From NCBI GenBank assembly GCA_038850515.1, contig JAWCLV010000001.1, forward strand, positions 7,155-71,154: a DNA stretch of 64,000 bases, written 5' to 3'. The position numbers and the translations under genes were made by a program. Position 1 is the stretch's first letter; the number at the start of each line of letters is the position of its first letter. Positions 4,815 through 64,000 of this stretch are shown here, piece after piece. This DNA comes from Candidatus Bathyarchaeia archaeon (GTDB taxonomy: Archaea > Thermoproteota > CALKCG01 > B24 > JAGTQN01). The notes under the pieces are model-generated. The model saw only the letters and a program-made list of their open reading frames with translations, made no database searches and was not told where the DNA came from.

Positions 4815-4967
4815 TTTTCAAATTCTTCGCTGAGGACGTTTCATATAAGAGCAGTCCTTCAGTCTAGATAGGGAAGATCATAGGTTGTATGATTTTTATA
4901 TTAATCCACAAGGCAGGGAAACATTTTAAAGTCTTCGTCGAACGCTGGTGGCTAGGTTGCATGCATT

Positions 4968-15674: not shown

Positions 15675-15736
15675 TTTGGCCCAGTTTAAATTATTCTATA
15701 ATCTATTTTACTCGATTAATACCAAATAAGGAACCT

Positions 15737-28966: not shown

Positions 28967-30517
28967 TTGCCAACCAATACGGCCACCGAGTCCCATCAGG
29001 ATAGGCTTAAAAGGGCCGTCATATCTGCCCTTAAGCTTGGCTATCAGATCGACCAAGAGGGCTTTGAGTTCCTATCTAGACTTCCACCAGATGTAGACTT
29101 GGATGAGGTTGTCAAGGAAGCCACCAAGGTGGTAGCGACATCGCCAGAGGAGCGTTCCCTTTGGCTTTCAAAAAATCTGCTGGAGGAAGCCTTTAGCATT
29201 TTACGGCCAAAGCAACAAGCCGGCATCGTGGGCTTAGAAGGCGTTGCCAAAGCCCCAAGGATTCCAGCCGCCGAGGTGGAAACGAAGCTCGAGGTTCTTT
29301 TTGATCCTACAGAACTTATGGAGGCCAAGGCATCCTTTGAGGATTTCATCGAATACTTCAGGGATCGATTCAGGCGTCTAGAGAAGATTCTTAGGCAGAG
29401 AATCGATGCCCGAGATGCTGTATCGATACATCAAGCCCTTAAGATGCCTATGGCTAAGGGCGTGAAGGTAATAGGCCTTGTAACCGATAAGCGGACAAGG
29501 GGTGGGATTACCCGCCTAGAGATCGAGGACCTAGAGGCCAGCCTAACGGTCATCGTTCCCCATAATGCAGAGCGCTCCTTGGTTGAGAGAGCCCAGAGGA
29601 TCTTTCTTGATCAAGTAATATGCGTTGTGGGTTCCATGGTAGGGGAGGGAAGAATGGTAGCATCTGAAATACTTTGGCCGGAGGTCCCGGATCACCCCCA
29701 GCGAAAGGCCGAGGACGAGGTTTCGGTGGTCATGACATCAGACCTCCATGTAGGAAGCACCAAATTCATAGGAAGGAGCCTAAATCGTTTCATCCGATGG
29801 CTGAAGGGGGAGCTGGGTACACCATGGGAAAGGGATCTGGCTAGAACCGTGAAATACCTAATCATAGCTGGGGATCTCGTCGATGGCATTGGTATCTATC
29901 CTGAGCAAGAAAAGGAGCTAAACATATCGGATGTCTACGAACAGTATAGGCTTGTGGCTTCCTACCTTCAGCAGATCCCTGAACATGTAGAGATCGTCGC
30001 CATACCAGGAAATCATGATGCCTCTAGACGGTCCCTTCCCCAACCAGCGATTCTTAAGAAGTATGCTGAACCCCTCCTCGGATTAAGGAATCTTCACCTC
30101 CTAGGAAACCCAGCCCGAATAAGGGTTCACGGCCTTGAGTTCCTCCTTTACCATGGAAATAGCCTTCCTGATGTTGTGGCCTCGGCTCCCAATATGTCCT
30201 TCAGCGAACCCCATGAAGCCATGGAGCTTCTTCTGAGGGCTAGGCACCTGTCCCCAATTTATGGAGAGAGGACGCCCATAACCCCCCAAAAAAGGGATTA
30301 TTTGGTCATAGAAGAGCCTCCCGATGTCTTTCAAGCAGGACATGTTCATGTTTACAAGTATAAGACCTATAGGGGAACCTTAATAGTGAATTCTGGCACG
30401 TGGCAAGGGCAGACCGAATATCTTAAGAAGAACGGGATTGATCCGACCCCTGCTCAAGTCCCAATCCTCAACCTATCAACCATGGAAGTTGTATCCTTGG
30501 ACTTCGGAAGTCCTTGA
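28967..30517 (+). CDS. DNA polymerase II (PolD) small subunit DP1, calcineurin-like phosphoesterase domain
   Basis: VVMTSDLHVGS, IIAGDLVDG and IPGNHD are metallophosphatase motifs within a ~500 aa archaeal DP1 architecture (N-terminal helical region plus OB-like fold). TTG start. Confidence 0.8.
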   Translation: MPTNTATESHQDRLKRAVISALKLGYQIDQEGFEFLSRLPPDVDLDEVVKEATKVVATSPEERSLWLSKNLLEEAFSILRPKQQAGIVGLEGVAKAPRIPAAEVETKLEVLFDPTELMEAKASFEDFIEYFRDRFRRLEKILRQRIDARDAVSIHQALKMPMAKGVKVIGLVTDKRTRGGITRLEIEDLEASLTVIVPHNAERSLVERAQRIFLDQVICVVGSMVGEGRMVASEILWPEVPDHPQRKAEDEVSVVMTSDLHVGSTKFIGRSLNRFIRWLKGELGTPWERDLARTVKYLIIAGDLVDGIGIYPEQEKELNISDVYEQYRLVASYLQQIPEHVEIVAIPGNHDASRRSLPQPAILKKYAEPLLGLRNLHLLGNPARIRVHGLEFLLYHGNSLPDVVASAPNMSFSEPHEAMELLLRARHLSPIYGERTPITPQKRDYLVIEEPPDVFQAGHVHVYKYKTYRGTLIVNSGTWQGQTEYLKKNGIDPTPAQVPILNLSTMEVVSLDFGSP

Positions 30518-32140: not shown

Positions 32141-33334
32141 TTATGATAGACGTACCTCTTCCTTTAAAAGGGCTTGAACCTGTTCCATGGGTATGCTTAA
32201 ACGAACCCTTTTTGAGCGACCATGTCTTCCAAGATTTACGAGTTTAGAGTTCACGATTCCCATGGCATCAAGCTCATTTAAGAGACCGCTTACCCTTCTC
32301 TGGGTAAGGGGTTCCATTCCAGCCTTTTTACAAATTCTCTCATAGGTCTCGTAGATATCCCCAGTTAAGGTTTGTTTTGGATTCTCTTGTTGGGTAAAAT
32401 AAACGCTATAGAGGACAAGCCTTTGATGGAGAGGAAGAGTTCTTAGAACTTCCGTGACTCTATCGTGCTCTATTTTCCACTGTGCCTTTCTAACATGATC
32501 CTCTGTGATGGCTCTTCCACCCTCCCGTTCAGCGAGCTCGCCGGCCACTCTAAGTAGGTCCAGTGCCCTTCTAGCATCCCCATGCTCTGCCGCAGCCAAA
32601 GCAGCACATAGCCTTAAGGCCCCTTCTGTAACGCCATCTTGAACTAAAGCTATTTTTGCCCGGTCGAGAAGGATATCGTATAAATCATCTGCCGTATATG
32701 GGTGGAAAACGATTTCTTCCTCACTAAGGCTACTGAGAACCCTTGGATCTAAAAGATCCTTAAAGTTTAGATCATTCGATATTCCTATAAGAACGATCTT
32801 ACCGGTATGAGAGGTTTCATTAACTCTTGTAAGTTCATAAAGAAGCTTATCGCCACTCGATTTTACAAGCATATCTACCTCGTCTAGAACGCTGATAAGA
32901 ATGCCTCCCATAGCTTTGAGACCTTGTTTGAAGCGGTCGAAAACTTCAGCAGTAGCTATTCCTGTAAAAGGGACCGGTACCTTTACTGATTGACTCAGCA
33001 TTGAGAGAACTCGATATTCGCTCCCAGCTACGCGGCAGTTGATATAAGCAACGCTAAGTGGGGTATCTATCTCAGAACTCTTGGCGGACAGATGTTGTAA
33101 GACGAAACGGGTAACCGCCGTCTTACCAGTCCCAGGTTTTCCATATATGAACATGTTTGAGCATCTGGAGCCCTTTAATACGGGAGCTAAAATCCATCCC
33201 AGCTTTCGGATCTGCTCATCTCGATGAGGTAGATTATCGGGAACATAGTCGGGTCGAAGAGCTTCACGGTTCTTCATGATTATGGACTGTTTCAAGAAAT
33301 GGTTAAATATCTCCGATAGAGCAGGGCTCTCCAT
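32141..33334 (-). CDS. cdc6: Orc1/Cdc6 replication initiator (AAA+ plus winged helix)
   Basis: Walker A GKPGTGKTAV, Walker B VLDEVD, and a C-terminal winged-helix region. Confidence 0.9.
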   Translation of the reverse strand: MESPALSEIFNHFLKQSIIMKNREALRPDYVPDNLPHRDEQIRKLGWILAPVLKGSRCSNMFIYGKPGTGKTAVTRFVLQHLSAKSSEIDTPLSVAYINCRVAGSEYRVLSMLSQSVKVPVPFTGIATAEVFDRFKQGLKAMGGILISVLDEVDMLVKSSGDKLLYELTRVNETSHTGKIVLIGISNDLNFKDLLDPRVLSSLSEEEIVFHPYTADDLYDILLDRAKIALVQDGVTEGALRLCAALAAAEHGDARRALDLLRVAGELAEREGGRAITEDHVRKAQWKIEHDRVTEVLRTLPLHQRLVLYSVYFTQQENPKQTLTGDIYETYERICKKAGMEPLTQRRVSGLLNELDAMGIVNSKLVNLGRHGRSKRVRLSIPMEQVQALLKEEVRLS

Positions 33335-34033
33335 GTTCTGTTAAATCATCAGAATTTAATAAAAAAGCTAGTAATACACTAAACTAGACTATTTCATTTA
33401 AACTTCTCAATTAGATTGAGGTTGATGGTGGGAAAAGGGATTCATAACAACATGGAAGATGAATCGCCTACGCCACCATTTCAACTGGAACCTTCCTAAA
33501 GCATTACAGCCTATTGGAGTGGGTTTAAAAAATTTGTATAAAATTTCAATTTCCATTTATAGGAATTTTTAATTTCTAAAAGGCGATTAACAAGTAGACT
33601 CTTTTCTCTCTGAAAAGAGAGAAGGAAAATACTTAGTAAGGAGATGACTCTCGAGTGGAAAACCTGGGGTGGGAATACGTCCCGAAGGCTTTTTTTAAAA
33701 ACCCTAGGGACCATCGAAGAACCTTTTATTGTGAACTATGTGAAACCTTACCCCTCCCTAAAACCCTAGAGACACGATTTCTGCCCCTTCCCGATATGGT
33801 AAACCTTTCACAATGCCATTTGATTGAACCCCTTGATTTCCACTCGAGAATCATAAAGAAAGCTTCAAAATCTCCTTTTTCCATTCCTAGCCCTTGTGAA
33901 ATTGTGAATAGAAAATCCCTTGCAAAAAAGGCTTTTTTCTCTAATCACTGCGAGATTTTATGGTTCTTTCCCTTTACAAGTTCACAAATTGAAATTTCAT
34001 TTAATAAAGAAAACTTTGGGGTCGACTAGGGTT
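33335..34033. promoter_or_regulatory. Candidate replication origin (oriC): ~700 bp AT-rich intergenic region abutting orc1/cdc6, with an ORB-like element
   Basis: ccaccatttcaactggaacc near ~33470-33495 reverse-complements to GTTCCAGTTGAAATGG, close to the archaeal ORB core GTTCCAGTGGAAAC. AT-rich tracts lie at ~33340-33420 and ~33525-33590. A weaker TTCCACTCGAGAA sits near 33835. Confidence 0.45.
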
Positions 34034-36075: not shown

Positions 36076-36570
36076 ATGGATTCGCTCCAGAAGGATTTTA
36101 GTGAAAAATTGAAAACTATTACAACAGACCCGCTCCTTTCCATACTTCTTTCCCAGAGCCATCTTACCGAAAAACAATTACAAGCCATACTTATTGACCT
36201 TTTTTTCTCAAAAAACTCACAAAAAAGAATTTCTTCGAGTGAAAAAGCTCAAATAATGCCTAAAAAATTGAAAAGAGGAGCATATAATAGGATATTGAAT
36301 CAGGGAAGGAGGAACATCATAAGGGCTTTCTTCACGATCTATTTACTCGGTTACCTTGAAATCTTGGATCTGGAAGACCTGGAGGCTCATATCACCTTAG
36401 GGAAGGGGATAAAAGCCTATATAGAAACATATAGAGAAGCCCTAGCACGAGGTTTTTCCTCGGAAGAGGCTAAACGGCTTCAAATGATCTATAAGGAACT
36501 CATCGAGAAAGTAAAATATTTAGCTAAACCGATTTCCCTTAAGGGAAGCTCAGGATCACAAAATATGTGA
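36076..36570 (+). CDS. Hypothetical small protein, translationally coupled to the downstream giant FtsX-fusion gene
   Basis: 164 aa. Its stop overlaps the next start (ATGA at 36567). The basic region KKLKRGAYNRILNQGRRNIIRAF could bind nucleic acid. A palindromic operator-like site lies upstream. Confidence 0.5.
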   Translation: MDSLQKDFSEKLKTITTDPLLSILLSQSHLTEKQLQAILIDLFFSKNSQKRISSSEKAQIMPKKLKRGAYNRILNQGRRNIIRAFFTIYLLGYLEILDLEDLEAHITLGKGIKAYIETYREALARGFSSEEAKRLQMIYKELIEKVKYLAKPISLKGSSGSQNM

Positions 36571-39500
36571 CATCACAGATCACAAGAAATGAAAAGGAAA
36601 TTTTTATATCCCATGAATTTTTTCATTATAGAGCTCTTTGCCAGAGGGTCTTACGAGTGTACAAAGCTAAGCTAAAATTACCGCCCCTCATCATACTCTT
36701 GGCATTTATGTTTTCGGTATTCGCATCACCATCGTATGCCTTTCAAGGAACAACCCTAAACATCTACGGCTTCGTAAAGGACTATAGGGGAATACCTATA
36801 CCGAATGCAACCCTTGTTATCCTCGACTGGACAACACTACAATACCGTCTTTGCTCGACAGACGCCAAAGGATACTACTCCCTTGAGGTCCCTCATATCG
36901 ATTATTACGGAACCCATCAATACATTGTATATGCTTTGCATTTCGACAATAATGGAACGATAGATTATGTTCCAGCCGTATATCCTACAAACCTATACGA
37001 TCCCTATGCTAGGATAACGACCTCTAGGGAGGTTTCCTTTCAACTTTTCCCAGGCGCTTCGATAACAGTAAAGGGGAGCCTCTGGTATGTCCTAAGCTCC
37101 CAAGTCCCGCGATGGTATACCTTAGAAGTCATCGATGCTACCACAGGAGGGTCGTACATTTTCGAAAACTCCATCCCTGTCTTCGGGAATCCCCCATATC
37201 GCTATGGAATAGGCTGTGATGTCCGCTTTATCCCTCAATCCCTAATAAATAGGCAAACGGTTGTGATACCGGCCGATAAACCTACCTACATTCTCGTGAA
37301 GGCTGAGTTCTTCAACGACAGGACAAATCGCTTCCAAACAGTTTCCTTCCTCATAGGATCTGAGGAAGGAGCCTTCACCCTTAGAAAAGGAGAACGTGCC
37401 ACGATGGACATTAGCGTTTATTCTGCTACCTTCAACCTAGAGGTTCTTTTAGGTTTAGTGAAGGAAATTGAGGGGAAAATCACGGAGGCAGAGCGCGTAG
37501 GCTTCTTTGTGGGAGGGGAAAGGGACGATCTTCGAAAGATAGGAATGACCCTCTCAAGAGCCCAAGCGAACCTTCCCCCTGTCAATCCAAATCCAGATGA
37601 GGATACTCTGCGACAGACTCGCTTCCTTCTCCTCGAGAAGTCCTATAATGATCTGAAACTTCTGGAAAGGCGTGTGGATCCAAACACGGGTGATATGTAC
37701 GTCATCTCCCAATCTCACTCAGTTTTCTTTCCACCTTTCTTCGCCGTCTTTGCAGTCATCTTGGCTTCTTTCCTTTTCGAGAATAATCGAAGAAAGATAG
37801 CCACCTCGATGATAATCTATCCTCTTATGATAGTGGGACTTTACTTCGTATACCCTGGGGTGAAGGTAATCTTCAACACCGAAGTCGTTATTGGGATCAA
37901 GGGATTCTGGACCGTTTCCATTCAGGGTGGAATCTTTTTCTTCAGCATCGTCATCCTTGCCATTATTGCCAGTCTCTTAGCCTTCTTCCTCTTCCCTAAG
38001 GTTTACAGGGAGCCCATTGTAGAAGGAAGGGCACCCCTTACTAGCGTCCTTTCAACAATCTTTTCCATCGGTAAAAGAAACGTTAAGCGCCGAAAGCTTA
38101 GAAGCTCCCTTGCCATCATTGCCATCATGATCCTCATAACTGGCTTTACAGCCCTTACTTCCCTTTCTTGGATCTACGGTCTTGTGAAGGAGACGCCAAA
38201 ACCCGTCAACACCTCGGCTGCAGGGGTCCTTATTATGAAGATTCCGAGTAACGAGACCCGTCCACACCTACGTTCCCAATTATTCAATTCCTTGGAGAAT
38301 GCCTCCCTTTTCGATTATGGAGCCCTTTCCTTAGTACCTAAGGTGGAGAATATCCCATCCCCCGATCCCGTGCTTTTTGTGAAGGCATCCAAAAGTGCGG
38401 CTCAGCCTTTACCCATTTATGGAGTCCTGGGAATAGCCCCAAGTCTCGAGGAAGGTCTAACGGGGGTTGGTCGGTTCATCGTAGGAGGCGAGCTTAGGGA
38501 TGACGACGAAGAGGGCGTCGTTATGAGTAGGAAGCTGGCTGATGCCTTGGGTGTACGGATAGGGGGGACCATAGAGGTCTATAGATCCGATATGAGCGTT
38601 GTCAAAAACTTTACCTTAAGGGCTTTCTTGGAAGATGGCTTCTTCGAAAGCCTTGACCTTGATGGGAATAGCCTTCCCCCTTCAAAACTCAAAGGTTCAG
38701 ATATCGTGAAAACAAACCAAACGGAGACCTTGCTCTTCACACCAAAGGCTGCGCTAAAAATATATGAAGAGGAAAAGTCCGGAATAGGGATCTCAAGGAT
38801 CTTTGTCAAGCTATCTTCTACATCCGAGGAGACTCTTTCCGAATTTGCCCAAGCCATGGTTCATAAAGGCTATACGGCCTGGGTCTTTAGAAACGGAATG
38901 GCGACAAAGTATTACATAGGATCCGTCTTTAAAGTGGAAGGCTTAGAGCAGTTTCTCATACCCTTTGTCCTCGTTGTGCTTAATGTAAGCCTTGTTATGA
39001 TGAACCTTCTCCACGAAAGGGCTAAGGAAGTTAGCATCCTTTCCATGGTTGGACTGAACCCCGGCCATATAGCGACGGTTTTTATGGCAGAATCCATAGT
39101 CATGGGCCTTGTAGGCGGCGGCTTAGGCTACTTCCTTGGTTTAGGTATGTACCGTCTTATGTCCTTCCTCTCGCCAGAAAGCCAGATAGCAGTCAGGGAG
39201 AAGCTGGAGTGGTACTGGGGCGTCGTTTCGATTGCGATAGCCCTTCTCGTAGCCGTCGTATCAGCCATACGCCCAGCCATAAAGGCTGCCATGTTGGCGA
39301 CCCCATCTATGGTGAGGAAGATGAAGGTCACCCAAGAGGAACGCCTGAAGAGGGATAAGGAGATCTTCAAGGTCTATTTGGGCCGAGAATTCGGGCTTCC
39401 GATAAGGGTTCACGAAAGGGAGGAACCCTTCTTCTCTTCCTACTTAACGGATAGACTAAGGGAGCTTATGACAGGTCTCTACGATAGAGTGGAGGAATTC

Positions 39501-39770
39501 TCCCTAGATGAGCAGGTGTTGGCTGACGGGACGAGGGTTAAGCGATTCCTCTTTAACTACATCATCATCGAAGGTCGAAACCAATATACCACTGTTAATG
39601 AGATTATAGCCAGAAAGAAGCCCCAAACCGATTTCTACACCCTATCCCTCCTTTCCAAACCGAAATCCCCAGGTCTTCCTGAGCATATTACGGAAACGAC
39701 CCTTACCTTGGTTAAGGATCTAGTTCTCGATTGGGATAGGGAGAAAGGAAGGATTATCGGGAAAATCTAG
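36567..39770 (+). CDS. Giant membrane protein: signal peptide, CarboxypepD_reg-like domain, extracellular region, extra TM helices, complete MacB/FtsX-type permease module, and cytoplasmic C-terminal tail
   Basis: 1067 aa. Signal LIILLAFMFSVFASPSYA. LNIYGFVKDYRGIPIPNATLVILD matches a CarbopepD_reg fold. FtsX TM1 is KRRKLRSSLAIIAIMILITGF, followed by a ~300 aa loop. FtsX TM2-4 is FLIPFVLVVLNVSLVMMNLLHERAKEVSILSMVGLNPGHIATVFMAESIVMGLVGGGLGYFLG...AIRPAIKAAMLATP. The C-terminal tail is ~150 aa. Confidence 0.8.
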   Translation: MTSQITRNEKEIFISHEFFHYRALCQRVLRVYKAKLKLPPLIILLAFMFSVFASPSYAFQGTTLNIYGFVKDYRGIPIPNATLVILDWTTLQYRLCSTDAKGYYSLEVPHIDYYGTHQYIVYALHFDNNGTIDYVPAVYPTNLYDPYARITTSREVSFQLFPGASITVKGSLWYVLSSQVPRWYTLEVIDATTGGSYIFENSIPVFGNPPYRYGIGCDVRFIPQSLINRQTVVIPADKPTYILVKAEFFNDRTNRFQTVSFLIGSEEGAFTLRKGERATMDISVYSATFNLEVLLGLVKEIEGKITEAERVGFFVGGERDDLRKIGMTLSRAQANLPPVNPNPDEDTLRQTRFLLLEKSYNDLKLLERRVDPNTGDMYVISQSHSVFFPPFFAVFAVILASFLFENNRRKIATSMIIYPLMIVGLYFVYPGVKVIFNTEVVIGIKGFWTVSIQGGIFFFSIVILAIIASLLAFFLFPKVYREPIVEGRAPLTSVLSTIFSIGKRNVKRRKLRSSLAIIAIMILITGFTALTSLSWIYGLVKETPKPVNTSAAGVLIMKIPSNETRPHLRSQLFNSLENASLFDYGALSLVPKVENIPSPDPVLFVKASKSAAQPLPIYGVLGIAPSLEEGLTGVGRFIVGGELRDDDEEGVVMSRKLADALGVRIGGTIEVYRSDMSVVKNFTLRAFLEDGFFESLDLDGNSLPPSKLKGSDIVKTNQTETLLFTPKAALKIYEEEKSGIGISRIFVKLSSTSEETLSEFAQAMVHKGYTAWVFRNGMATKYYIGSVFKVEGLEQFLIPFVLVVLNVSLVMMNLLHERAKEVSILSMVGLNPGHIATVFMAESIVMGLVGGGLGYFLGLGMYRLMSFLSPESQIAVREKLEWYWGVVSIAIALLVAVVSAIRPAIKAAMLATPSMVRKMKVTQEERLKRDKEIFKVYLGREFGLPIRVHEREEPFFSSYLTDRLRELMTGLYDRVEEFSLDEQVLADGTRVKRFLFNYIIIEGRNQYTTVNEIIARKKPQTDFYTLSLLSKPKSPGLPEHITETTLTLVKDLVLDWDREKGRIIGKI

Positions 39771-54111: not shown

Positions 54112-54411
54112 CTACTTTTCCGCTCCGGACCTTAGCTTTAAACCACCATCAACATCTATGATCAAATCAGAAGATCCAAAATAATCCTTCAACCTCTTAT
54201 CCAAGTAAATCGATATACCTTCAAATTTTCCGACTTCTTCGAAATAAGCCTTTAAAAAGGCTGGATTTACATCGGCCTTAGGGCGATGGATTACCTCTGG
54301 ATGTATTCCTGTACAAAAGCACTCTGACTGGAATATGAATATAGCTACGTCTCTACCGGCTCTTTCCTGCATCACATAGTTCTTCGCCCATTCGGTCAAT
54401 GTTACTTTCAC
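54112..54411 (-). CDS. Small CxCTG-motif protein (paralog 1; ArsD-like/thioredoxin-fold guess)
   Basis: 99 aa. IFIFQSECFCTGIHPEV...FEEVGKFEGISIYLDKRLKDYFGSSDLIIDVDGG is paralogous to the 54487 and 56678 proteins. Confidence 0.5.
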   Translation of the reverse strand: MKVTLTEWAKNYVMQERAGRDVAIFIFQSECFCTGIHPEVIHRPKADVNPAFLKAYFEEVGKFEGISIYLDKRLKDYFGSSDLIIDVDGGLKLRSGAEK

Positions 54412-54486
54412 GATGAGTTACCTCCACGATTTTGCTTTAACATCTATTAATAAAACGATTCTTTCTCGCCAATGGGGCTTCTGTCT

Positions 54487-54798
54487 CTATCTGAAGGTTA
54501 AAGATAATCTAGAGCCTTTCGTGAAATCGCTTCGATCAACATCTATGATGAAGACCTGGGCATGGATGTGCTCTAGATAACCCCTCAGTCGGGCGCTCAT
54601 GAAAATCGGTATGCCCTCTACCTCCCCTATCCTCTCGAAGCCCCACCCTTCCAGAAACCGTTCCACCGAGGACTTGGAAGCATACTCCACAACGAAATCC
54701 CTTCCTGTGCAGGTACAGCCACCCCTATGTATCAATAGGACCGGATCGGGTATCATCGTCTTAACGGAGCTTGCCATAAGCTCCCTAGCCCCATCCAT
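54487..54798 (-). CDS. Small CxCTG-motif protein (paralog 2)
   Basis: LLIHRGGCTCTGRDFVV...FLEGWGFERIGEVEGIPIFMSARLRGYLEH...IIDVD. I trimmed the start to the internal Met (MDGAREL) to avoid a 150 nt overlap with the permease gene. The track ORF extends to 55011. Confidence 0.45.
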   Translation of the reverse strand: MDGARELMASSVKTMIPDPVLLIHRGGCTCTGRDFVVEYASKSSVERFLEGWGFERIGEVEGIPIFMSARLRGYLEHIHAQVFIIDVDRSDFTKGSRLSLTFR

Positions 54799-54860
54799 CA
54801 GGACGAACTTCAATTCAACAATCCCTCCTTGGAATAACCCAGAATTCCTCGGAACCCATG

Positions 54861-55898
54861 CTAGAGTCCTCCGCCTATCAGCCCATAAGCTAGTCCGAAA
54901 AGAACGCTGAAGGTCCAGGCTACGAGGGCGTAGGTAATGACGGGCTTCCAACCAACGATCCTCGAGGTCGCTATCATGTTCGGGACATCGTAAGGCTGGC
55001 CCATAAGCCATGAGAGCATAACGGGCTTCGTCATGCCAAGGTCCATAAGCCCCCTTCCTAGGACGATCTCGACAAGGGTTGGCGTGTATAGGGGTCCGCC
55101 TATAACCGAAGCCAGGAGTACTCCTCCGACGCCCGTAAGGTGGGTAGCCACAAGCTCCTCGGGCAGGTAGGCCTCAAGGTAGCTGACGGCCACGAGCCCG
55201 AGGAAAAACCATGGTAGTATCTGCTTCCCTAGGTAGCCCCCGAAGCTGAGGGCTGTCCAAAGCCTCGTGTCCAAGGGAGGCTTGACGACTTCCACGGGGG
55301 AAACCTGGTCCTGGGCGCTAGTCGGGCTCTGTTTCGTCCTAAGCCTTTTCTCAACTTCCCTCCCCCAAGGGGTCTTCGACACGATGAAGCCGGCAGTGAT
55401 AGCCGTGGCGAGGGCTGCGACGATCCTAACACCCGCGAGTTCCCAAGAAAGCATCTCTCCCGTCATTACGATTGTAAGGATGTTCGCTGCTGGTGCCATA
55501 AGGAGAAATGCCAAAGCAGGTCCTATACCGCTTCCTGAGTAGAGGATGCCCGCAAATATCGGAACCATCGTACAGGAGCAGACAGTGAAGAAGGGCGCCA
55601 CGAGGACTCCAAGGACGTAACCAGCCTTTCCTCCTGCCATGCGTCTCGTCACGAAGTCCTTGGGCATGAACTCGTAGATCAAACCAGCGGCGACGAAGGC
55701 GAAGAGGAGGCATATGACGCCATGGCTCAGGTAGTCGATGATGTAAGCGACGGGTATCTCCCATGGAGCCAAGCCATGAAAGTCGGCGGGCTTCATAGTA
55801 GGCGCCAAGGAGTATGCGACAATCCTAGAATAGACTACGGCGCCTATAACTGCCGATATGAAGGCGATCATCAGGATCGTGCGTAGCGTTCGATGCAT
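54861..55898 (-). CDS. ArsP-like CSC-motif permease (COG0701/DUF318 family)
   Basis: FFTVCSCTMVP carries the CSC motif characteristic of ArsP-type organoarsenical/metalloid permeases, with ~8 TM helices. I trimmed the start to MHRTLRTIL. The track ORF continues to 56117 with a TTG start and overlaps the trx gene. Confidence 0.7.
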   Translation of the reverse strand: MHRTLRTILMIAFISAVIGAVVYSRIVAYSLAPTMKPADFHGLAPWEIPVAYIIDYLSHGVICLLFAFVAAGLIYEFMPKDFVTRRMAGGKAGYVLGVLVAPFFTVCSCTMVPIFAGILYSGSGIGPALAFLLMAPAANILTIVMTGEMLSWELAGVRIVAALATAITAGFIVSKTPWGREVEKRLRTKQSPTSAQDQVSPVEVVKPPLDTRLWTALSFGGYLGKQILPWFFLGLVAVSYLEAYLPEELVATHLTGVGGVLLASVIGGPLYTPTLVEIVLGRGLMDLGMTKPVMLSWLMGQPYDVPNMIATSRIVGWKPVITYALVAWTFSVLFGLAYGLIGGGL

Positions 55899-55906
55899 TC
55901 TGGGTT

Positions 55907-56143
55907 TCACTTCTTCTCGAACCAGGACCTTATTTCCTTGAAGTTTGGAACGCGGCCTTGGCAAACGACCCTTTCGTCTATGACTACGGCTGGGGTTGCC
56001 ATAACCCCATACTTCCATATCTCGACGAAGGAGGTTACATGCTCGACCTGGGCATCCAATTTTAGCTCCTCCAAGACCTGTCTCACCCTTTCCTCCGTGA
56101 TTATGCATCTGTAACAACCAGGACCAAGGATCTTTACCTTCAT
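55907..56143 (-). CDS. Small thioredoxin-fold redox-active disulfide protein (redox-active disulfide protein 2-like)
   Basis: 78 aa; MKVKILGPGCYRC carries a CxxC active site. These are frequently paired with COG0701 permeases. Confidence 0.75.
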   Translation of the reverse strand: MKVKILGPGCYRCIITEERVRQVLEELKLDAQVEHVTSFVEIWKYGVMATPAVVIDERVVCQGRVPNFKEIRSWFEKK

Positions 56144-56172
56144 AGATAATCCCCTTCCTCCAAACTTGAGAT

Positions 56173-56337
56173 TTACCTGCAGGAACAGCCTCCAGAGGCC
56201 CCGGAGCTAGAAAAGAGGCGATTCTCGGCGAAGGTCCTTCGCCAGCATTCCTGGCAGATTCCTACATAGCCAAGGTCCTTATGGACCGCGTATAGAAGGC
56301 TTACACCATCCTTGCCACAGATCGCGCACTTCCCCAT
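56173..56337 (-). CDS. Unannotated Cys-rich mini-ORF (~54 aa), zinc-ribbon-like plus C-terminal GGCSC
   Basis: My reverse translation gives MGKCAICGKDGVSLLYAVHKDLGYVGICQECWRRTFAENRLFSSSGASGGCSCR (CxxC...CxxC plus GGCxC). It lies between the trx and ferredoxin genes on the same strand. Coordinates are approximate (+-3) and it falls below the track's length cutoff. Confidence 0.3.
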   Translation of the reverse strand: MGKCAICGKDGVSLLYAVHKDLGYVGICQECWRRTFAENRLFSSSGASGGCSCR

Positions 56338-56400
56338 AAAAACTCACCAAATTTCCGATGACCCCATCTTTTCCTTATTATCTTCTTTTCTTTTTATTAC

Positions 56401-56694
56401 CTAACCATAGCCATATTTCGCTCTGAGGCTCCTAAGCATCTGCTTCAACTCAGCCCTCGATGGGAACTTTATAGCCCCCTTAGGACACTTGGGACCGCAG
56501 GATTGGCAACCGACCACACAGTTGTACGGCTGAGCGACGATGACTTTCTCCCCATCCTTCCCATAGACCTTATGTTCGCAGAACTTAAGGCATAGCCCAC
56601 AGTTTGCACAGAGCTCGTAGTCTATCCTTGGATACCAGGCTATCTCCCTTCGAGGGATTCCGAGATATTTTTCCTGCTCAGTCACTGGCACCAC
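56401..56694 (-). CDS. 2x[4Fe-4S] ferredoxin-domain protein
   Basis: CANCGLCLKFC and CVVGCQSCGPKCP, i.e. two CxxCxxCxxxC(P) motifs. Confidence 0.7.
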   Translation of the reverse strand: MVPVTEQEKYLGIPRREIAWYPRIDYELCANCGLCLKFCEHKVYGKDGEKVIVAQPYNCVVGCQSCGPKCPKGAIKFPSRAELKQMLRSLRAKYGYG

Positions 56695-57067
56695 TTCCCA
56701 GCTTCTCGACGACTTCCGACACTTTCTTCATCGCTTCGGATGTTTCCATATTCCTTAGATCCAAGGAGATCACCTGCTTGTCGAAGTCCAAGCCTTTGTC
56801 CGCGAAGGCATCTTTGAACATCTTCCTCTGCATCCTAGGATCGCATCCGCCTACGATGTAAACCGCATCCTTTTCTCCTTCCTTTAGTAAGTCCCTCCAG
56901 AAGCGGTCCCCATCGTCCACGCAGAGCTGGGGATGGACGATGGCGTACTCTACGTCAAGCTCGTTCCTGACGAAGTTTATCAGCTTCCAAAGGTCCAACT
57001 TAGCAAAGCCTGGGCATTCGCCTGTGCAAAAGCACATGATAAAACGAGGTAGCTTCTTTTCACCCAA
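56678..57067 (-). CDS. CxCTG-motif protein (paralog 3; ArsD/MvhD-like Cys pattern)
   Basis: RFIMCFCTGECPGF near the N-terminus (compare ArsD AMCCSTGVCG) and later VYIVGGCDPR; 129 aa. Overlaps the ferredoxin gene by 17 nt. Confidence 0.5.
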   Translation of the reverse strand: MGEKKLPRFIMCFCTGECPGFAKLDLWKLINFVRNELDVEYAIVHPQLCVDDGDRFWRDLLKEGEKDAVYIVGGCDPRMQRKMFKDAFADKGLDFDKQVISLDLRNMETSEAMKKVSEVVEKLGSGASD

Positions 57068-57153
57068 TACGGGACTCCTCCTTAATCATCCGGTAAGGAT
57101 ATCGAAATGCATAGCAATATTTAAATATTTCTATAAACCATTTTGATGTAGGA

Positions 57154-57468
57154 ATGAAGGAAGATCGAAACCGTTTCAGGGCAAGGTTCTTCAAGGCCCT
57201 CGCGGACCCCACGAGACTTGAGATCCTAGAGCTTCTCCGTGAAGGCGAGAAATGCGTCTGCGAACTCGTCCCTCAGCTGAAGATACCACAACCCCTTGTC
57301 TCTCGGCATCTGAAGATCCTGAAAGAATGCGGTCTGGTCAAAGTAAAGGGCTTTAGGAACAGGAGGTTCTATTCTATTACGGACCCAAGGGTCTTCGCCG
57401 TGATAGACGGCGTAACGCAGGACTTGAGGGCTTCGATTTCAAAAATCCTCATCGAACAGATGGTCTAG
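57154..57468 (+). CDS. ArsR/SmtB family metalloregulator
   Basis: LADPTRLEILELLREGEKCVCEL carries the metal-binding CVC in helix alpha3, followed by a wHTH (LVSRHLKILKECGLV). Divergent from the minus-strand cluster. Confidence 0.85.
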   Translation: MKEDRNRFRARFFKALADPTRLEILELLREGEKCVCELVPQLKIPQPLVSRHLKILKECGLVKVKGFRNRRFYSITDPRVFAVIDGVTQDLRASISKILIEQMV

Positions 57469-57613
57469 CCAAAGAAGAGGAGGCCGCATGAACCGAAGAG
57501 CGGCTAGCGGTCAATTCGCCTCTACCTATCATCTTTTATCCCATCTCAAAGAGGCCTCGAACGGGGCCCTTGATCCATAAAAAACCATAATCCTGAGTTC
57601 CTAGAAGGTTTTA

Positions 57614-57811
57614 ATGGATAAAATCATCGTCGACCTCGATATGTGCACGGGTTGTGGCACCTGCGTAGAGATCTGCCCAGAGCAAGCTTTCAAGCCTGTG
57701 GAGAAAGACGGAATGAAGGTTTCCGAAGCGATCGCCAAAGCCGATTGCTTCGCCTGTAGGGCTTACATTAAGCGCAAGAGGCGTAAAGGCGAACATAGTC
57801 GTTCAACCTAG
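57614..57811 (+). CDS. Small 4Fe-4S ferredoxin-like protein
   Basis: CTGCGTCVEICP plus CFAC; 65 aa. Confidence 0.45.
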   Translation: MDKIIVDLDMCTGCGTCVEICPEQAFKPVEKDGMKVSEAIAKADCFACRAYIKRKRRKGEHSRST

Positions 57812-58047: not shown

Positions 58048-59211
58048 TTGGAAGACTCGCTACGATTCCTATATGAAGGCGATTTTCCCATGGACCTTGA
58101 GGAACGAATTCTCTCAGTCTTCGAGGGAACGAAACCAGATCTTATGCCATGGTTTGCGGACCTAACCTATTGGTATAGAGCTATGGAGTATAGGCGTTGT
58201 CTTCCCACCAAATATAGCGGGGTTAACGGAAGGATTAGGCTTTATAGAGAGCTGGGATGCGGGGCCCATGAAGAGCTTTGTACCCTTCCTGGAAGGATCA
58301 AGCATTATGGTATAAAAAGGCTGTATTCGAGTGAGGAATTCAGGGATGGGACGATTCTCTATGAGGAAGGCTACGAAACGCCCCTAGGGAGCCTTATAGC
58401 CGTCAGAAAGTTTCTCCCATGCTCCGTAAGCACGGCTTACATCAAGTACCCTGTTTCCACAGGAAAGGACCTTAAGGCCCTTAGATATGTCTATCGGAAC
58501 CAGGACTTTGAGCCTGATTATGGGGTTCAGTACGATCAGATGAGGGATTGGAAGGGCTTAGGCTTCGTAAGTTCCCTTCCACCGAGGACCCCCTTCCAAA
58601 GTCTCGTTGTAGTTTGGGCGGGAGTCATGAATACGATAAGGCTTATGATGCGGGAGCCAGAAGAGCTTGAGGAGACAATTCAAGTTATGTCGGAAGCAGA
58701 CGATCCGATCTACGAAGCGATCCGTGATTCTCCGGCGCCAGGCGTATACCTCGGAGAGAATATCACGAGCGAGGTCATCACACCCTCGATCTTTAGAAAG
58801 TATCATATGCCCTACTACAGGCGAAGGGTCGCCCAGCTTCATTCGGCCAAGAAAAAGATTTTCGTCCATGTGGATGGAGCACTTAGGGGGGTCCTTCCCC
58901 TATTCGAAGCTACAGGAGTCGACTGCGTCCAATCCGTCACGCCAGCACCGGTAGGCGATGTAGCCTTAGAAAGGCTGAGGGAACTTGCTGGTTCGAACAT
59001 AATCCTATGGGGAGGCCTTCCAGGCGTTTACTTCAGCCGCCAGTACTCAGAAAGGCTTCTATACGATATGGTGAAGCGGATAATCGATAATCATATGGAA
59101 GGGCATAAGTTCATTCTTGGTGTGGCGGATCAGGTTCCTCCAGATGGGGAGATATATCGAGTAAGAAAAGTAACGGAGCTTCTGGAAGAATTGGGAAGGT
59201 ACAGAAATTAG
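58048..59211 (+). CDS. Uroporphyrinogen decarboxylase (URO-D) family protein (MtaA/CmuA-like fold)
   Basis: 387 aa TIM-barrel-like protein; C-terminal ...ILWGGLPGVYF...FILGVADQVPPDGEI resembles URO-D family C-termini. Family assignment is tentative. Confidence 0.5.
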   Translation: MEDSLRFLYEGDFPMDLEERILSVFEGTKPDLMPWFADLTYWYRAMEYRRCLPTKYSGVNGRIRLYRELGCGAHEELCTLPGRIKHYGIKRLYSSEEFRDGTILYEEGYETPLGSLIAVRKFLPCSVSTAYIKYPVSTGKDLKALRYVYRNQDFEPDYGVQYDQMRDWKGLGFVSSLPPRTPFQSLVVVWAGVMNTIRLMMREPEELEETIQVMSEADDPIYEAIRDSPAPGVYLGENITSEVITPSIFRKYHMPYYRRRVAQLHSAKKKIFVHVDGALRGVLPLFEATGVDCVQSVTPAPVGDVALERLRELAGSNIILWGGLPGVYFSRQYSERLLYDMVKRIIDNHMEGHKFILGVADQVPPDGEIYRVRKVTELLEELGRYRN

Positions 59212-59225
59212 AGTAAAAAGCTATT

Positions 59226-60233
59226 CTATGTGAGGGGTAGCCTTATAGGCCTTCCAGTTTTAGCAGATTCGTAGGATGCCAGAGTGATCTCCGTTCCCTG
59301 CCTCCCATCGAAGCCTGTAGCCCTCGGCTCACGATCCTCCCTTATGCAGCTTAGGAAGTCCTTTACCATCTCCTTGTCTACATCGCAACCCCACTGGTGC
59401 CATTGATAGGGGTTCTTAGGCTCCCCCGCAAGGCAGAGGTAGGCTACTTGCCTAAAGGCATCGAGGAGAATCGTTCCATCGGTTCCGAGAACCTCGAGGG
59501 TTACATCCCCCCATGTGTAGAAGCTCTCTGGCCTAGACCAGCTTCCATCTATGGAAGCCATGACGCCATTCCTGAAATCAAGAAGCGTTAGGAAACAATC
59601 CTCGACCCTAAGGCTTCTATCGATGTTCGTTCCTATCTCCGTGTAGACCGTTTCGACCTCACTTCCCGTGTACCAACGCATAAGATCTGCAAGATGAACC
59701 GTGTGATCCATAATGGCTCCTCCACCAGAAAGCTCGGGCTTCACGAACCAGCCGCCTTGAAAATGTCTCAGCCTATTCGTCCCTACGATGGCTCTAATCC
59801 TACCGATCGTTCCCCGATCCAAGAGTTCCTTCACTATCATGGCTGGTCGCGAATAGCGCATGACATAGCAAACCTGGAGCTTCAAGCCAGCCTTCCTGGC
59901 TGCCCTTATCATCTCATCCGCATCCTTGAGGCTTATAGCCATGGGCTTCTCGACCAAGACATGCTTACCCGCTTCGAGGGCCTCGACAGCCAGCTCCCTA
60001 TGAGTATGGGTTGGTGTGCAGATATCGACGATCTCTATGGCTTCATTCTTAAGGGCATCCTTAAGGCTTCCATAGGCCCTTGCTCCGTATCGTTCCGCAG
60101 ATCGTCTTGCCATCTCCACATTTCTTCCAACGACGGCTAGGATTCTGCTACCCTCAACCATTTTCCAAGCAACCATATGGGTCGAGCCCATGAAGCCATA
60201 GCCTACAACCGCAACGCCTATCCCCTTTTCCAA
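59226..60233 (-). CDS. Gfo/Idh/MocA family oxidoreductase
   Basis: GIGVAVVGYGFMGSTHMVAW Rossmann; EKPMA. Confidence 0.85.
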   Translation of the reverse strand: MEKGIGVAVVGYGFMGSTHMVAWKMVEGSRILAVVGRNVEMARRSAERYGARAYGSLKDALKNEAIEIVDICTPTHTHRELAVEALEAGKHVLVEKPMAISLKDADEMIRAARKAGLKLQVCYVMRYSRPAMIVKELLDRGTIGRIRAIVGTNRLRHFQGGWFVKPELSGGGAIMDHTVHLADLMRWYTGSEVETVYTEIGTNIDRSLRVEDCFLTLLDFRNGVMASIDGSWSRPESFYTWGDVTLEVLGTDGTILLDAFRQVAYLCLAGEPKNPYQWHQWGCDVDKEMVKDFLSCIREDREPRATGFDGRQGTEITLASYESAKTGRPIRLPLT

Positions 60234-61542: not shown

Positions 61543-62686
61543 CTCGATTTCGCATAATAGCGCTCTCGAAGATTTCCTTAAGCCTTTTGGCTATGATCTT
61601 TTCCTCGCCATCTACGAGGCAGTGGGGGTTGATGACTATGGAGTTCCCTCGGGCCTCTGTCCATATGGCCGGATTGCCTGATCTAAGAATATTCGTAATC
61701 TCGGAAACCTTCATTCCAAGGCTTTCCTCATCGATGATGATCTGAGCCCTAGGCCAGCATTGAGCCGAGTATTCCCCCTTCGAAGGATCTGGGAAAAGAC
61801 GTCTTACCTTCACATGCGGGACGTTGGAAAACTCTTCCAAGAAGAATCTTACGACAGCCTCCCATCTATCCCTGTCCGCCTTATGGTCCTTCGATACATA
61901 TCTTTGTAAGGCTACTACAAGCCCGACAATCTGTTCCTTTCCTATCTTCATGGGCCTTCCAATCGCATGATGGGGGCATCCTTGGAGGGCACAGGCCTCT
62001 ATTAACTCCTTCCGCCCACATATGAAGCCCGAATCGTTCGGTCCTTGGATAGCCTTACCACCGCTAAAGGCTACGATGTCGGCTCCTGCGGCTATTATGT
62101 CTCGAAGGTTCTCCAAGGGAGGGAGCTCCGCTGCTGCGTCCACTATGACGGGTATTCCGTGCTTTTTGGCGACCTTTACAACTTCTTTGAGGGTTTCCAT
62201 ATCGCAGAACTTTCTAGAAGTAAAGAAGATGAAGGCAATGGCAGCTGTCCTTTCCGTTATAGCGGCCTCCAAATCTGAAGGCGAAAAGCCCTCTGAGGTT
62301 CCAATTTCGATGAGCCTGGCTCCAGCCTGGGAAAATGCCTGGTCGTAGGGGTTTCTATGAATCTTCGGTATGATGACCTCATTCTTCATTCCTTCGGTGA
62401 AGGGAAGTCTCCGGATCTTCTCAGGATCCTTTCCTGCGATGCAGGCAGCCGTAGCCAGGACGAGACCTGCCGCGGCTCCCGCCGTAACATAGCCGGCCTC
62501 TGCTCCAGTAATCTCCGCAATAACCTTACCGGCTTTCTCGTGGAGTTCATCCATGAGGACGAAGGCCTTGGCAGCCTCGTTCATGGCTTCAAGAACTTCT
62601 GGTGGCATAAGGGATCCACCGAGCATCGTCAAGGTTCCGGCTGCGTTGATGACCTTCCTGACTCCAAGCTTTTCATAGACACTCAA
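61532..62686 (-). CDS. SelA-like PLP-dependent enzyme (COG1921, L-seryl-tRNA(Sec) selenium transferase-related)
   Basis: N-terminal VINAAGTLTMLGGSL; the PLP-Lys context is AFSGGKAIQGP; 384 aa. Confidence 0.65.
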   Translation of the reverse strand: MSVYEKLGVRKVINAAGTLTMLGGSLMPPEVLEAMNEAAKAFVLMDELHEKAGKVIAEITGAEAGYVTAGAAAGLVLATAACIAGKDPEKIRRLPFTEGMKNEVIIPKIHRNPYDQAFSQAGARLIEIGTSEGFSPSDLEAAITERTAAIAFIFFTSRKFCDMETLKEVVKVAKKHGIPVIVDAAAELPPLENLRDIIAAGADIVAFSGGKAIQGPNDSGFICGRKELIEACALQGCPHHAIGRPMKIGKEQIVGLVVALQRYVSKDHKADRDRWEAVVRFFLEEFSNVPHVKVRRLFPDPSKGEYSAQCWPRAQIIIDEESLGMKVSEITNILRSGNPAIWTEARGNSIVINPHCLVDGEEKIIAKRLKEIFESAIMRNRARS

Positions 62687-62823
62687 TTTTAATCACTTCG
62701 CTTCATGATTCCATGAAGGCTTTTAAAGATTTCTTAAAGCCAGAATGTACCTTAGTGACTTATATAGCCATTTTACCCATTTAGATTGGATAGCAAATTA
62801 ATAAGAATAAAATTAAGAGAAAC

Positions 62824-62845
62824 ATTCTTCTAATTAACGAAGAAT
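62824..62845. promoter_or_regulatory. Inverted repeat ATTCTTC-taattaac-GAAGAAT in the AT-rich divergent promoter region upstream of the thermosome gene
   Basis: Perfect 7 bp arms with an 8 nt AT-rich spacer, ~65 nt upstream of the thermosome start. Coordinates approximate. Confidence 0.35.
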
Positions 62846-62910
62846 TTTAAAAATAAAAAATAAAATGTGAAAAGAAAATATTTGAAAAATTATGAATAGG
62901 ATTTATTTTA

Positions 62911-64000
62911 TTAGTACTCTGGTGGTGGCTTCTCGCCTGGCTTTGGTGGCGGAGGCTTGGCTGCTACGACTACATCGTCCACTCTAAGGATCATTATCGC
63001 AGCCTCGACGGCCGAAGATACGGCAGCCTTCTTGACTATGGCTGGCTCAAGGACCTTAAGTTCCTTCATGTCCTCGATTTTTCCCGTGAAGACGTTTACG
63101 CCCATGCTTACGCCATCAGGCTTTTCGTGGGCCGCCCTTAGGGCTACGATGATATCCAAAGGATCCAAGCCTGCGTTCTCAGCCAAGGCTGATGGAATGG
63201 CTTCCAGAGCCTCAGCGAAGGCTTCGACGGCTATCTGCTCCCTTCCCCCTAGCTGGGCCGCGTACTTCTTAAGCTCCTTGGCAAGCTCAGCCTCGACGGC
63301 GCCGCCTCCATAAACGATTCTTCCATCCTTCACCACATCCGCTACGACGCAGAGGGCATCGTGGAGGGATCGCTCTGCCTCGTCAACAGCCCTTTCAAGA
63401 CCCCCTCGGATGAGAATCGCTACGGCCTTTGGCTCCTTACAGCCTTCGACGAAGACCATCTTATCTTCACCTATCCTTCTTTCCTCTACCAAGCCAGCCT
63501 CACCAAGGTCCGAGGGCTTCAGATCATCGATGTTCGTAACGACCTTTCCACCCGTAGCCTTGGCAAGCTTCTCCATATCGGACTTCTTGACCCTTCTTAC
63601 GGCCAGGATGCCCTCCTTCGCCATGAAGAACTGGGCCATGTCGTCGATGCCCTTCTGGCAGAAGACCACATTGGCTCCTGCAGCCTTCACCTTCTCGACC
63701 ATTTGCTTGAGGATTCTAGTCTCCTCGTCCATGAAGGCCCTCATCTGGGTTGGATCCCTAATGCGGATCTCTGCGCTGAATTCAGTCTTTTCGACTTCCA
63801 TGGCGGCATCGAGGAGGGCGATCTTGGCATTCTCGACCCTCTTGGGCATGCCCGGATGGACAACTTCCTTATCGATTATCAAGCCCTTTATTAACTCCGT
63901 TTCGCCTACACTCTTTCCAGGCTTCTTCATTATCTGTACATCGTCCACATCTGCAACCCTCTTTCCATCCCTTATCTCAGTAACTCTCTTGATGGCTTCA
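62911..64000 (-). CDS. ths: Thermosome (group II chaperonin) subunit, C-terminal ~2/3; N-terminus beyond window end
   Basis: [10 protein letters not shown], and an equatorial-domain C-terminus ending in a Pro/Lys-rich tail ([17 protein letters not shown]). The ORF continues past 64000 on the minus strand. Confidence 0.9.

Follow-up and report, generated by a model that had tools for sequence, protein, structure and literature searches.

A divergent arsR gene cluster in a Bathyarchaeia contig

We analysed a 64,000-nucleotide stretch of contig JAWCLV010000001.1 from a Candidatus Bathyarchaeia archaeon (hereafter the window), in which the genes for an ArsR-family regulator and a 65-aa ferredoxin lie divergent from seven minus-strand genes that encode an ArsP-family (COG0701) permease, a thioredoxin-like protein and five further cysteine-containing proteins (Table 1). 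An earlier note on this DNA had described an ArsR with a Cys-Val-Cys (CVC) motif, a permease with a Cys-Ser-Cys (CSC) motif, a CxxC thioredoxin, two ferredoxins and a Cys-rich mini-ORF; a check of the open reading frames (ORFs) found each of these in its place, and all nine ORFs of the cluster lie where the note had put them, on the same strands and with every cysteine motif that it had named. The identical set of genes is called on a public contig from an archaeal metagenome-assembled genome (MAG; L001). The family assignments of the permease, the thioredoxin, ArsR and the ferredoxins are firm. On the minus strand, the genes for two proteins that we refer to as G7 and FDX6 overlap by 14-17 nt and the remaining gaps measure 11-75 nt, a tight packing that fits a single seven-gene transcription unit divergent from arsR.

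Table 1. Genes and candidate regulatory element of the cluster, with positions in the window.
Feature	Position	Strand	Length and motif
g1	54112-54411	minus	99 aa, CFCTG
g2	54487-54813	minus	108 aa, CTCTG
ArsP-family (COG0701) permease	54861-55895	minus	FFTVCSCTMVP
MTH895/ArsE-family thioredoxin-like protein	55907-56143	minus	78 aa, GCYRC
Cys-rich mini-ORF	56173-56337	minus	54 aa, 7 Cys
FDX6, 2x[4Fe-4S] ferredoxin	56401-56694	minus	97 aa
G7	56678-57067	minus	129 aa, CFCTGEC
Candidate ArsR operator (arsR-G7 intergenic region)	57111-57134	none	24-bp palindrome
arsR	57154-57468	plus	CVC at residues 34-36
Small ferredoxin	57614-57811	plus	65 aa

G7 resembles the N-terminal domain of HdrA and is paired with FDX6

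G7 is more strongly conserved than any other gene of the cluster. Median identities to the window protein, taken for archaea and bacteria apart, are 80% and 70% for G7, 58% and 49% for FDX6, 48% and 39% for ArsR and 36% and 40% for the thioredoxin. No Pfam family matched G7, and comparison with NCBIfam gave weak matches to the first ~90 residues of HdrA (14 bits against the models NF040770 and NF041778, the cutoffs of which are 1100-1400). A profile of 15 homologs searched against the PDB matched HdrA over residues 10-90 (9sfi_A, E=2e-3), with C12, C14, C49 and C75 of G7 aligned to HdrA cysteines, and for the AlphaFold2 (AF2) model of G7, which has a predicted local distance difference test score (pLDDT) of 87, the best six Foldseek matches were HdrA chain A in every case. 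Profile and modelled fold thus both identify G7 as a predicted stand-alone homolog of the N-terminal [4Fe-4S] domain of HdrA and, because of this relationship, we read its CxC motif as putative Fe-S ligands. A kinship between G7 and the DGC domain (PF08859) was rejected (hhalign probability 0.3%).

Five cysteines are invariant in G7 (C12, C14, C18, C49 and C75), one of which, C18 in the string GECPGF, is missing in HdrA. In HdrA, the Fe-S cluster of the N-terminal domain lies on the ferredoxin branch and its ligand Cys197 is given in trans by a partner subunit (PMC9012536). To judge from the alignment, C18 of G7 could replace Cys197 and would then complete the predicted cluster in cis.

FDX6 is an obligate partner of G7: in 76 of 79 loci the gene right after G7 encodes a ferredoxin of this type, at a median gap of 10 nt, and this ferredoxin is frequently duplicated. 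The protein matches the Fer4 families of Pfam, and its top NCBIfam match is HgcB-like (38 bits against a cutoff of 99); it combines eight conserved cysteines with a conserved N-terminal extension, G.PR..I.W.P.ID. The database holds 538 G7 homologs, and G7 is present in 155 of 185,579 species genomes, all of them MAGs, from both Archaea and Bacteria (Bathyarchaeia, Brockarchaeota, Methanomethylicia, Odinarchaeia, Hadarchaeales, Chloroflexota/Anaerolineae, Omnitrophota and Ratteibacteria).

The gene set recurs in two domains of life

Using G7 as an anchor, we surveyed 79 genomic loci, 26 bacterial and 53 archaeal, and counted the partners encoded within 5 kb of G7 (Table 2). The usual bacterial order is arsR, permease, thioredoxin, G7, FDX6. 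Recurrent among archaea is an arrangement in which arsR is divergent from the mini-protein gene, which is followed by G7, FDX6, the thioredoxin and the permease. An independent scan of metagenomes, anchored on the mini-protein, returned 22 loci, of which 12 have FDX6, 11 ArsR, 10 the thioredoxin, 9 G7 and 6 the permease. The proposal of a coherent, non-canonical ArsR-linked unit of permease, thioredoxin and Fe-S proteins therefore stands, the same partners having been recovered from both the G7 and the mini-ORF anchor. The recurring gene set probably represents a genuine defence system, not characterised so far, that acts against thiol-reactive metals or metalloids.

Table 2. Partners encoded within 5 kb of G7 (number of loci with the partner out of all loci).
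Partner	Bacteria	Archaea
ArsR	21/26	27/53
ArsE-type thioredoxin	17/26	8/53
ArsP-type permease	13/26	7/53
CcdA	8/26	2/53
OsmC	7/26	
DGC-domain protein	6/26	19/53
PF04060 Fe-S-domain protein	7/26	10/53
Mrp/NUBPL ATPase	1/26	11/53
Mini-protein		9/53

Several modules are also joined by protein fusion. In locus L060 a member of the thioredoxin family is fused to a DGC domain (DGC+Thioredoxin_3), and a domain of ~70 aa, here called X, is fused to DGC in L079 and to FDX6 in L005, the X copies matching each other by BLASTP at E=1e-11. Domain X has no Pfam model and shows the consensus ...NY[IV]P...Y...LL.EY..FC; it is found at the C-terminus of DGC proteins (L079, 5150-5866; L077, 6310-7047) and at the N-terminus of the FDX6-type protein (L005, 11039-11560).

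Two further features of the neighbourhoods were observed. In 10 loci, all of Bathyarchaeia (L013, 6877-7221, and nine others), the gene immediately upstream of G7 encodes a conserved protein of ~115 aa that matches no Pfam or NCBIfam model and is not present in the window. In the Brockarchaeota/Thermoproteota loci L024-L040, a DGC-domain gene and a gene for a Mrp/NUBPL Fe-S P-loop ATPase precede the G7-FDX6 pair, and this context looks distinct and housekeeping-like.

ArsR and a candidate operator in the divergent spacer

The regulator belongs to the ArsR family by its matches to HTH_5 (PF01022, E=1e-21) and NF033788 (93 bits against a cutoff of 55). Its CVC occupies the alpha3 position at which ArsR/SmtB proteins classically bind As(III), Cd or Pb, and a CxC at this position is kept in 40 of the 47 ArsRs adjoining G7, 37 of which have CVC, in agreement with the earlier view that the regulator carries metal-site cysteines. 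The third cysteine of R773 ArsR is missing from the window protein. Two cysteines are enough for As(III) binding in R773 ArsR (bioRxiv 10.1101/2022.10.17.512643).

A search for ArsR operator palindromes had been proposed, and one does lie in the 86 bp that separate arsR from G7, a 24-bp palindrome (ATAGCAATATTT|AAATATTTCTAT) with 11 of 12 positions complementary. It is centred on the TATA-like element TTTAAATA and is unique in the window, where 0 such matches are expected. Related palindromes round a ATTTAAAT core are found in 14 other divergent ArsR-G7 spacers, and these operator-like palindromes are of two kinds, whose distribution follows the division of the ArsR sequences into two subgroups. 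The palindrome of the window is accordingly best described as a candidate ArsR operator that may at the same time be a bidirectional archaeal promoter, both in one element.

Permease, thioredoxin and mini-protein

The permease matches ArsP_1 (PF03773) at E=8e-43 with 147 bits, against a gathering score of 32.3. Its closest NCBIfam models are those of the SO_0444 Cu/Zn efflux family (83.5 bits) and of SaoE (72 bits), both matched far under cutoff. Of 23 homologs adjoining G7, 21 retain the CSC motif, a vicinal cysteine pair within a membrane segment. The thioredoxin-like protein is a member of the MTH895/ArsE family (TIGR00412, 96.5 bits against a cutoff of 62; PF13192, E=2e-25) with the active site CYRC and shows a trace of similarity to the ArsD model NF033727 (E=0.063).

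The mini-protein consists of a zinc-ribbon-like head with four cysteines, a Gly/Ser linker and a C-terminal vicinal cysteine pair (GGCSCR in the window, GGCCG in relatives). We take the mini-ORF to be a real gene because its 10 homologs share the cysteine pattern (invariant C4, C7, C28 and C31 plus the Cys tail) and because, over 21 pairs, the mean proportion of nonsynonymous differences (pN) is 0.20 and that of synonymous differences (pS) 0.74. Word-index searches with the mini-ORF and with g1 returned near-identical matches only. In the three metagenome contigs L097, L098 and L099, a gene for a small ferredoxin like the 65-aa protein of the window directly follows the mini-protein gene, and no G7, permease or ArsR was detected within the available sequence.

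g1, g2 and the small ferredoxin are lineage-specific additions

The two genes at the far end of the minus-strand series, g1 and g2, encode paralogs with a predicted IscA fold. Over their full length they share 31% identity, including the blocks C.CTG, EGI.I and IIDVD. For g1, the match to Fe-S_biosyn (PF01521) remains under the Pfam cutoff (E=7e-3, 17.1 bits against 26.3), that to the NCBIfam model NF041239, the 'CC/Se motif' family, is likewise under its cutoff (E=5e-3), and the match to PF28096 is weak. A structure model of g1, built from a 4-sequence alignment (AF2, pLDDT 77), returned IscA, SufA or HesB proteins as all of its top 10 Foldseek matches, with E from 1.5e-4 (1r94_A) to 2e-2. 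g1 appears to be a distant member of the 'CC/Se motif' family. The CxC of g1/g2, near residue 31 and replaced by CC in one relative, takes the place of the first cysteine of IscA, and the C-terminal CGC motif of A-type carriers is missing. The g1 family, with CxC or CC as its motif, comprises 9 representative clusters among 1.84 billion proteins.

The earlier note had grouped G7, g1 and g2 as one triplicated family of CxCTG proteins. This view was not upheld: the two sets proved to be unrelated (hhalign probability 2%) and differ in fold, that of the HdrA N-terminal domain in G7 and that of IscA in g1/g2, so that the shared CxCTG string is no evidence of triplication. A hidden Markov model (HMM) made from g1/g2 found no match in the 79 other G7 loci. 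Together with the tiny size of the family, this led us to reject g1/g2 as part of the conserved system; they occur solely in close relatives of the window, with g2 at the same position in L088.

The 65-aa ferredoxin matches Fer4 (E=8e-9) and the single-cluster models Fer4_13 and Fer4_15 (E~2e-4), and by comparison of its cysteine pattern (CxxCxxCxxxCP plus CxxC) it is probably a single-cluster ferredoxin of the Thermotoga/Pyrococcus type. It is not present in the close relative L088. Like g1 and g2, this ferredoxin is a lineage-specific add-on and not part of the core.

The cluster differs from canonical ars operons and other known systems

Pfam families for ArsA, ArsB, Acr3, ArsC and ArsD matched no gene of the cluster, no gene in the 46.7-63.7 kb part of the window and no ORF of at least 150 aa in its first 47 kb; ORFs shorter than 150 aa outside 46.7-63.7 kb were not scanned with HMMs. 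Specifically, the models of the ArsB and Acr3 pumps (PF02040 and PF01758) had no match in the cluster or among window ORFs of at least 150 aa, and the ArsC signatures CX5R and HNPxCxxS occur in no reading frame of the window. The absence of ArsA, ArsB, ArsC and Acr3, which had been asserted before, is supported by the Pfam scans and, for ArsC, by the motif search. The families that had been suggested for the small proteins, namely ArsD (PF06953), CGGC (PF08821), MvhD/FlpD (PF02662) and TusA, gave no Pfam match to any of them at E<=0.1. At 23462-24199, 30 kb from the cluster, the window encodes a class I S-adenosylmethionine methyltransferase of 245 aa (Methyltransf_11/25/31), a generic protein that nothing marks as ArsM.

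In Pseudodesulfovibrio mercurii ND132, operon C (DND132_2311-2314), which encodes ArsR, ArsP, ArsE and a DGC protein, is induced by arsenic (bioRxiv 10.1101/2022.10.17.512643). Operons of this type and the cluster of the window unite an ArsR-family regulator, a COG0701/ArsP permease and a PF13192/TIGR00412 thioredoxin in one unit, and DGC proteins are also encoded near relatives of the cluster, whereas the window itself has no DGC gene. In addition, the window holds G7 and FDX6, the mini-protein with its Cys tail, two IscA-fold CxC proteins and the small ferredoxin; its host is an archaeon and the candidate operator overlaps a TATA-like box. By analogy, the cluster may be described as an ArsR-ArsP-ArsE operon to which an electron-supply module has been added. 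The association of permease, thioredoxin and ArsR is already known; for G7, the G7-FDX6 pair and the mini-protein we found no description in the literature or in family models. With the canonical ars operons (arsRBC, arsRDABC and arsR-acr3-arsC) the window shares an ArsR with an alpha3 CVC that is placed over an export function. However, it has Fe-S proteins in place of an ArsB/Acr3 pump, ArsC, ArsA and ArsD, and with neither pump nor reductase the cluster cannot be classed as a canonical ars operon.

By sequence and fold, G7 corresponds to the N-terminal Fe-S domain of HdrA (HdrABC-MvhAGD; PDB 5odc, 7bkb and 9sfi), and FDX6 resembles the ferredoxin domains of HdrA, so that the pair mimics its ferredoxin-side wire. 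In contrast to HdrA, however, G7 is a single domain of 129 aa, and the window pair comes without HdrB, HdrC and the flavin adenine dinucleotide (FAD)/thioredoxin-reductase domain, which in HdrA shares one chain with inserted and C-terminal ferredoxin domains. Lacking the FAD domain, G7 is not an HdrA, and without this domain, HdrB and HdrC neither bifurcation nor heterodisulfide chemistry is possible. The ferredoxin:thioredoxin reductase (FTR) and the archaeal ferredoxin:disulfide reductases share with G7 a CxC beside the predicted cluster and the proposed job, which is the flavin-free transfer of electrons by a [4Fe-4S] protein to a thioredoxin-fold protein. No relation between FTR and G7 was detected in sequence or fold, and the catalytic subunit of FTR has seven cysteines (CPC...CPC...CHC pattern), whereas G7 has five.

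For the SAO system of Clostridioides difficile, with its permease SaoE and thioredoxin-like protein SaoT, a role in heavy-metal or organometal handling has been proposed (10.1101/2022.07.06.499078). As in the window, a CSC permease of the ArsP family is encoded beside a small thioredoxin-like protein, and many of the small proteins have vicinal cysteines. The window, by comparison, has no MerB-like lyase (SaoL), no ATP-binding cassette importer and no selenocysteine. Membership in the SAO system was ruled out, since the SaoE model, with a cutoff of 325, gave 72 bits and the SaoT model no match. With the IscA/SufA proteins and the 'CC/Se motif' (seleno)proteins (NF041239, PF28096), g1/g2 have the IscA fold in common, yet the window pair is under the family cutoffs. 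HgcB is the best named match of FDX6, yet far under cutoff, and FDX6 is without the CC tail; HgcA and MerA are not present. The flexible Gly/Ser arm with a vicinal cysteine pair makes the mini-protein similar to the C-terminal Cys pair of MerA. Cys-Cys tails such as that of MerA hand over Hg(II).

A model for the cluster and its alternatives

Our preferred interpretation, which we hold as tentative, is that the region is an ArsR-repressed divergon for thiol-based export and defence against a thiol-reactive stressor, for which a trivalent metalloid or a soft metal is the likeliest candidate. Without inducer, ArsR would sit on the palindrome over the shared TATA-like element and keep both arsR and the seven-gene operon off; binding of an inducer, which we infer to be thiophilic, to the alpha3 Cys-Val-Cys pair would release it. 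The ArsP-family permease would then extrude the compound by means of its membrane-embedded Cys-Ser-Cys, while the ArsE-type thioredoxin, the mini-protein and the two IscA-fold CxC proteins may bind the compound and hand it over, or keep vicinal thiols reduced. G7, with one predicted [4Fe-4S] cluster, and FDX6, with two, would form a three-cluster wire along which low-potential electrons are presumed to flow from the ferredoxin pool to one or more thioredoxin-fold partners. The electron step draws support from the recurring partners of G7-FDX6, which are thioredoxin-fold or thiol-relay proteins (ArsE-type thioredoxins, DGC-thioredoxin and thioredoxin-CcdA fusions, redoxins), from the fusions that join Fe-S proteins to thioredoxin-fold partners and from the fact that another catalytic subunit is never present in the loci. 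Support for the metalloid part comes from the classical position of the alpha3 site, from the membership of the permease in the ArsP family and from the arsenic-induced operon of ND132. A bolder version, in which G7 and FDX6 are a hitherto unrecognised ferredoxin:thioredoxin(-like) reductase without flavin, descended from the N-terminal domain of HdrA, with a [4Fe-4S] cluster that Cys18 completes in cis, and here power the reductive handling and export of a metalloid, seems to us unlikely.

Several findings weigh against our preferred interpretation. Roughly every second archaeal locus, all of the Brockarchaeota type among them, has G7-FDX6 without ArsR, permease or thioredoxin and carries DGC and a Mrp/NUBPL ATPase instead, so that the Fe-S pair must have a role that is independent of export. 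Canonical ars genes do not recur near G7 in any locus, and the closest named relatives of the permease (SO_0444 Cu/Zn efflux and SaoE) are not proven arsenical pumps. All 79+22 loci are from uncultured organisms, and no copy of G7 was found on plasmids of cultured bacteria. Finally, the OsmC, redoxin/AhpC, CcdA and rubrerythrin neighbours suggest general thiol or oxidative stress.

This last point leads to a reading to which we give a minor though appreciable chance, namely that of a general thiol/disulfide or oxidative-stress system in which the CxC of ArsR would be a redox switch. As a ferredoxin-dependent reductase, G7-FDX6 would here drive a thioredoxin relay for peroxiredoxin/OsmC-type enzymes and CcdA, and the COG0701 permease would move a thiol compound or relay reducing power and would be no metalloid pump. 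CcdA/DsbD_TM proteins adjoin the pair in 10 loci, redoxin/AhpC in 6 and OsmC in 7 bacterial ones; a fusion of thioredoxin repeats to CcdA is encoded in L005 and a rubrerythrin in the odinarchaeal locus L004, and most archaeal G7-FDX6 loci have no permease. Archaeal ArsR-like regulators can moreover sense redox, and a weak MsvR-type match was obtained (E=9e-7). However, the alpha3 CVC is the classical As(III)/Cd/Pb site, the permease family includes proven metal(loid) exporters with the identical CSC motif and the comparable ArsR-ArsP-ArsE-DGC operon of ND132 is arsenic-responsive. The CVC of ArsR, the ArsP and ArsE families and the arsenic induction of the related ND132 operon would suit a pathway dedicated to arsenic or organoarsenicals, in which G7-FDX6 would take methyl-, aromatic- or thio-arsenicals from the pentavalent state to the trivalent one that ArsP exports and the whole would be a functional analogue of ArsC plus a pump. 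Many host MAGs have hot-spring sample names, and ArsE is said to have been placed by Chen, Zhang and Rosen in 2019 in a reductive step on aromatic arsenicals. Nevertheless, no homolog of ArsC, Acr3 or ArsB and no clear homolog of ArsM adjoins any of the ~100 loci, the source of many host MAGs is not an arsenic-rich site but soil, a lake or a digester, and the Brockarchaeota-type context lacks ArsR and permease, all of which makes this pathway quite improbable in our estimation.

A role in the trafficking and repair of Fe-S clusters or sulfur would explain the IscA/SufA fold of g1, the richness in cysteine of all neighbours and the Mrp/NUBPL P-loop ATPase beside DGC-G7 in 11-13 loci: g1/g2, this ATPase, the PF04060 protein and DGC would assemble or repair clusters, with G7 and FDX6 as clients or scaffolds. 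We consider it very improbable, however, as g1/g2 are without CGC, reach 17 bits where Pfam requires 26 and are found in none of the other loci, and as the permease and the CVC-type ArsR would be left unexplained. Smaller still is the probability that independent modules (ArsR with the Fe-S pair, permease with thioredoxin, and small orphans) came to lie side by side by chance. G7-FDX6 does stand alone in many archaea, and the series of ArsR, mini-protein, thioredoxin and permease occurs without a nearby G7 in L106 and L107. Against this stand the repetition of combination and order, with short intergenic gaps, in Bathyarchaeia, Chloroflexota, Omnitrophota and Ratteibacteria, the recovery of one set from two independent anchors, the domain fusions that join the modules and the one shared candidate operator/promoter in the window.

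Other features of the window

The genes flanking the cluster (58048-60233 and 62589-63653) encode a URO-D-family protein, GFO_IDH_MocA oxidoreductases and a DegT-like aminotransferase. Genes for GFO_IDH_MocA, URO-D and DegT proteins also lie 3-5 genes upstream of G7 in the Brockarchaeota-type loci L025, L029, L032, L033, L037 and L040; as identities are just 24-30%, this synteny may be coincidence.

The window is archaeal in content, with further genes for PCNA, the small subunit of PolD (28967-30517) and Cdc6/Orc1 (32141-33334), and the named relatives nearest to it are Bathyarchaeia. The intergenic region beside cdc6/orc1 (33330-33945) contains inverted 27-nt boxes (ATGACTCTCGAGTGGAAAACCTGGGGT) at 33644-33670 and 33828-33854, 157 nt apart, which resemble archaeal origin-recognition boxes, and the 32-38 kb part has the lowest GC content of the window (0.42). 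Judging from these features, the region is probably a replication origin. Runs of very large ORFs (400-1486 aa) occupy 1526-7646, 11569-13515, 13665-23376 and 36567-39770; several of them match no Pfam family at E<=1e-8, and others combine Peptidase_M28 or FtsX-like permease domains.

Significance

The trio of ArsR, COG0701 permease and small thioredoxin is common in anaerobes and its chemistry is poorly understood. The cluster of the window and ~100 related loci tie this trio repeatedly to a very strongly conserved Fe-S pair. The cluster further offers a testable pair of archaeal repressor and candidate operator and a new type of Cys-tail mini-protein that is usually missed by gene callers. 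If the pair does feed ferredoxin electrons to thioredoxin-fold proteins, it would be a new type of reductase and would account for the way in which vicinal-thiol transporters and chaperones can function in strict anaerobes that are exposed to metal(loid) or oxidant stress. G7 and FDX6 would then be the missing link from the ferredoxin pool to the ArsE-type thioredoxins, DGC-thioredoxin fusions and CcdA relays of uncultured anaerobes.

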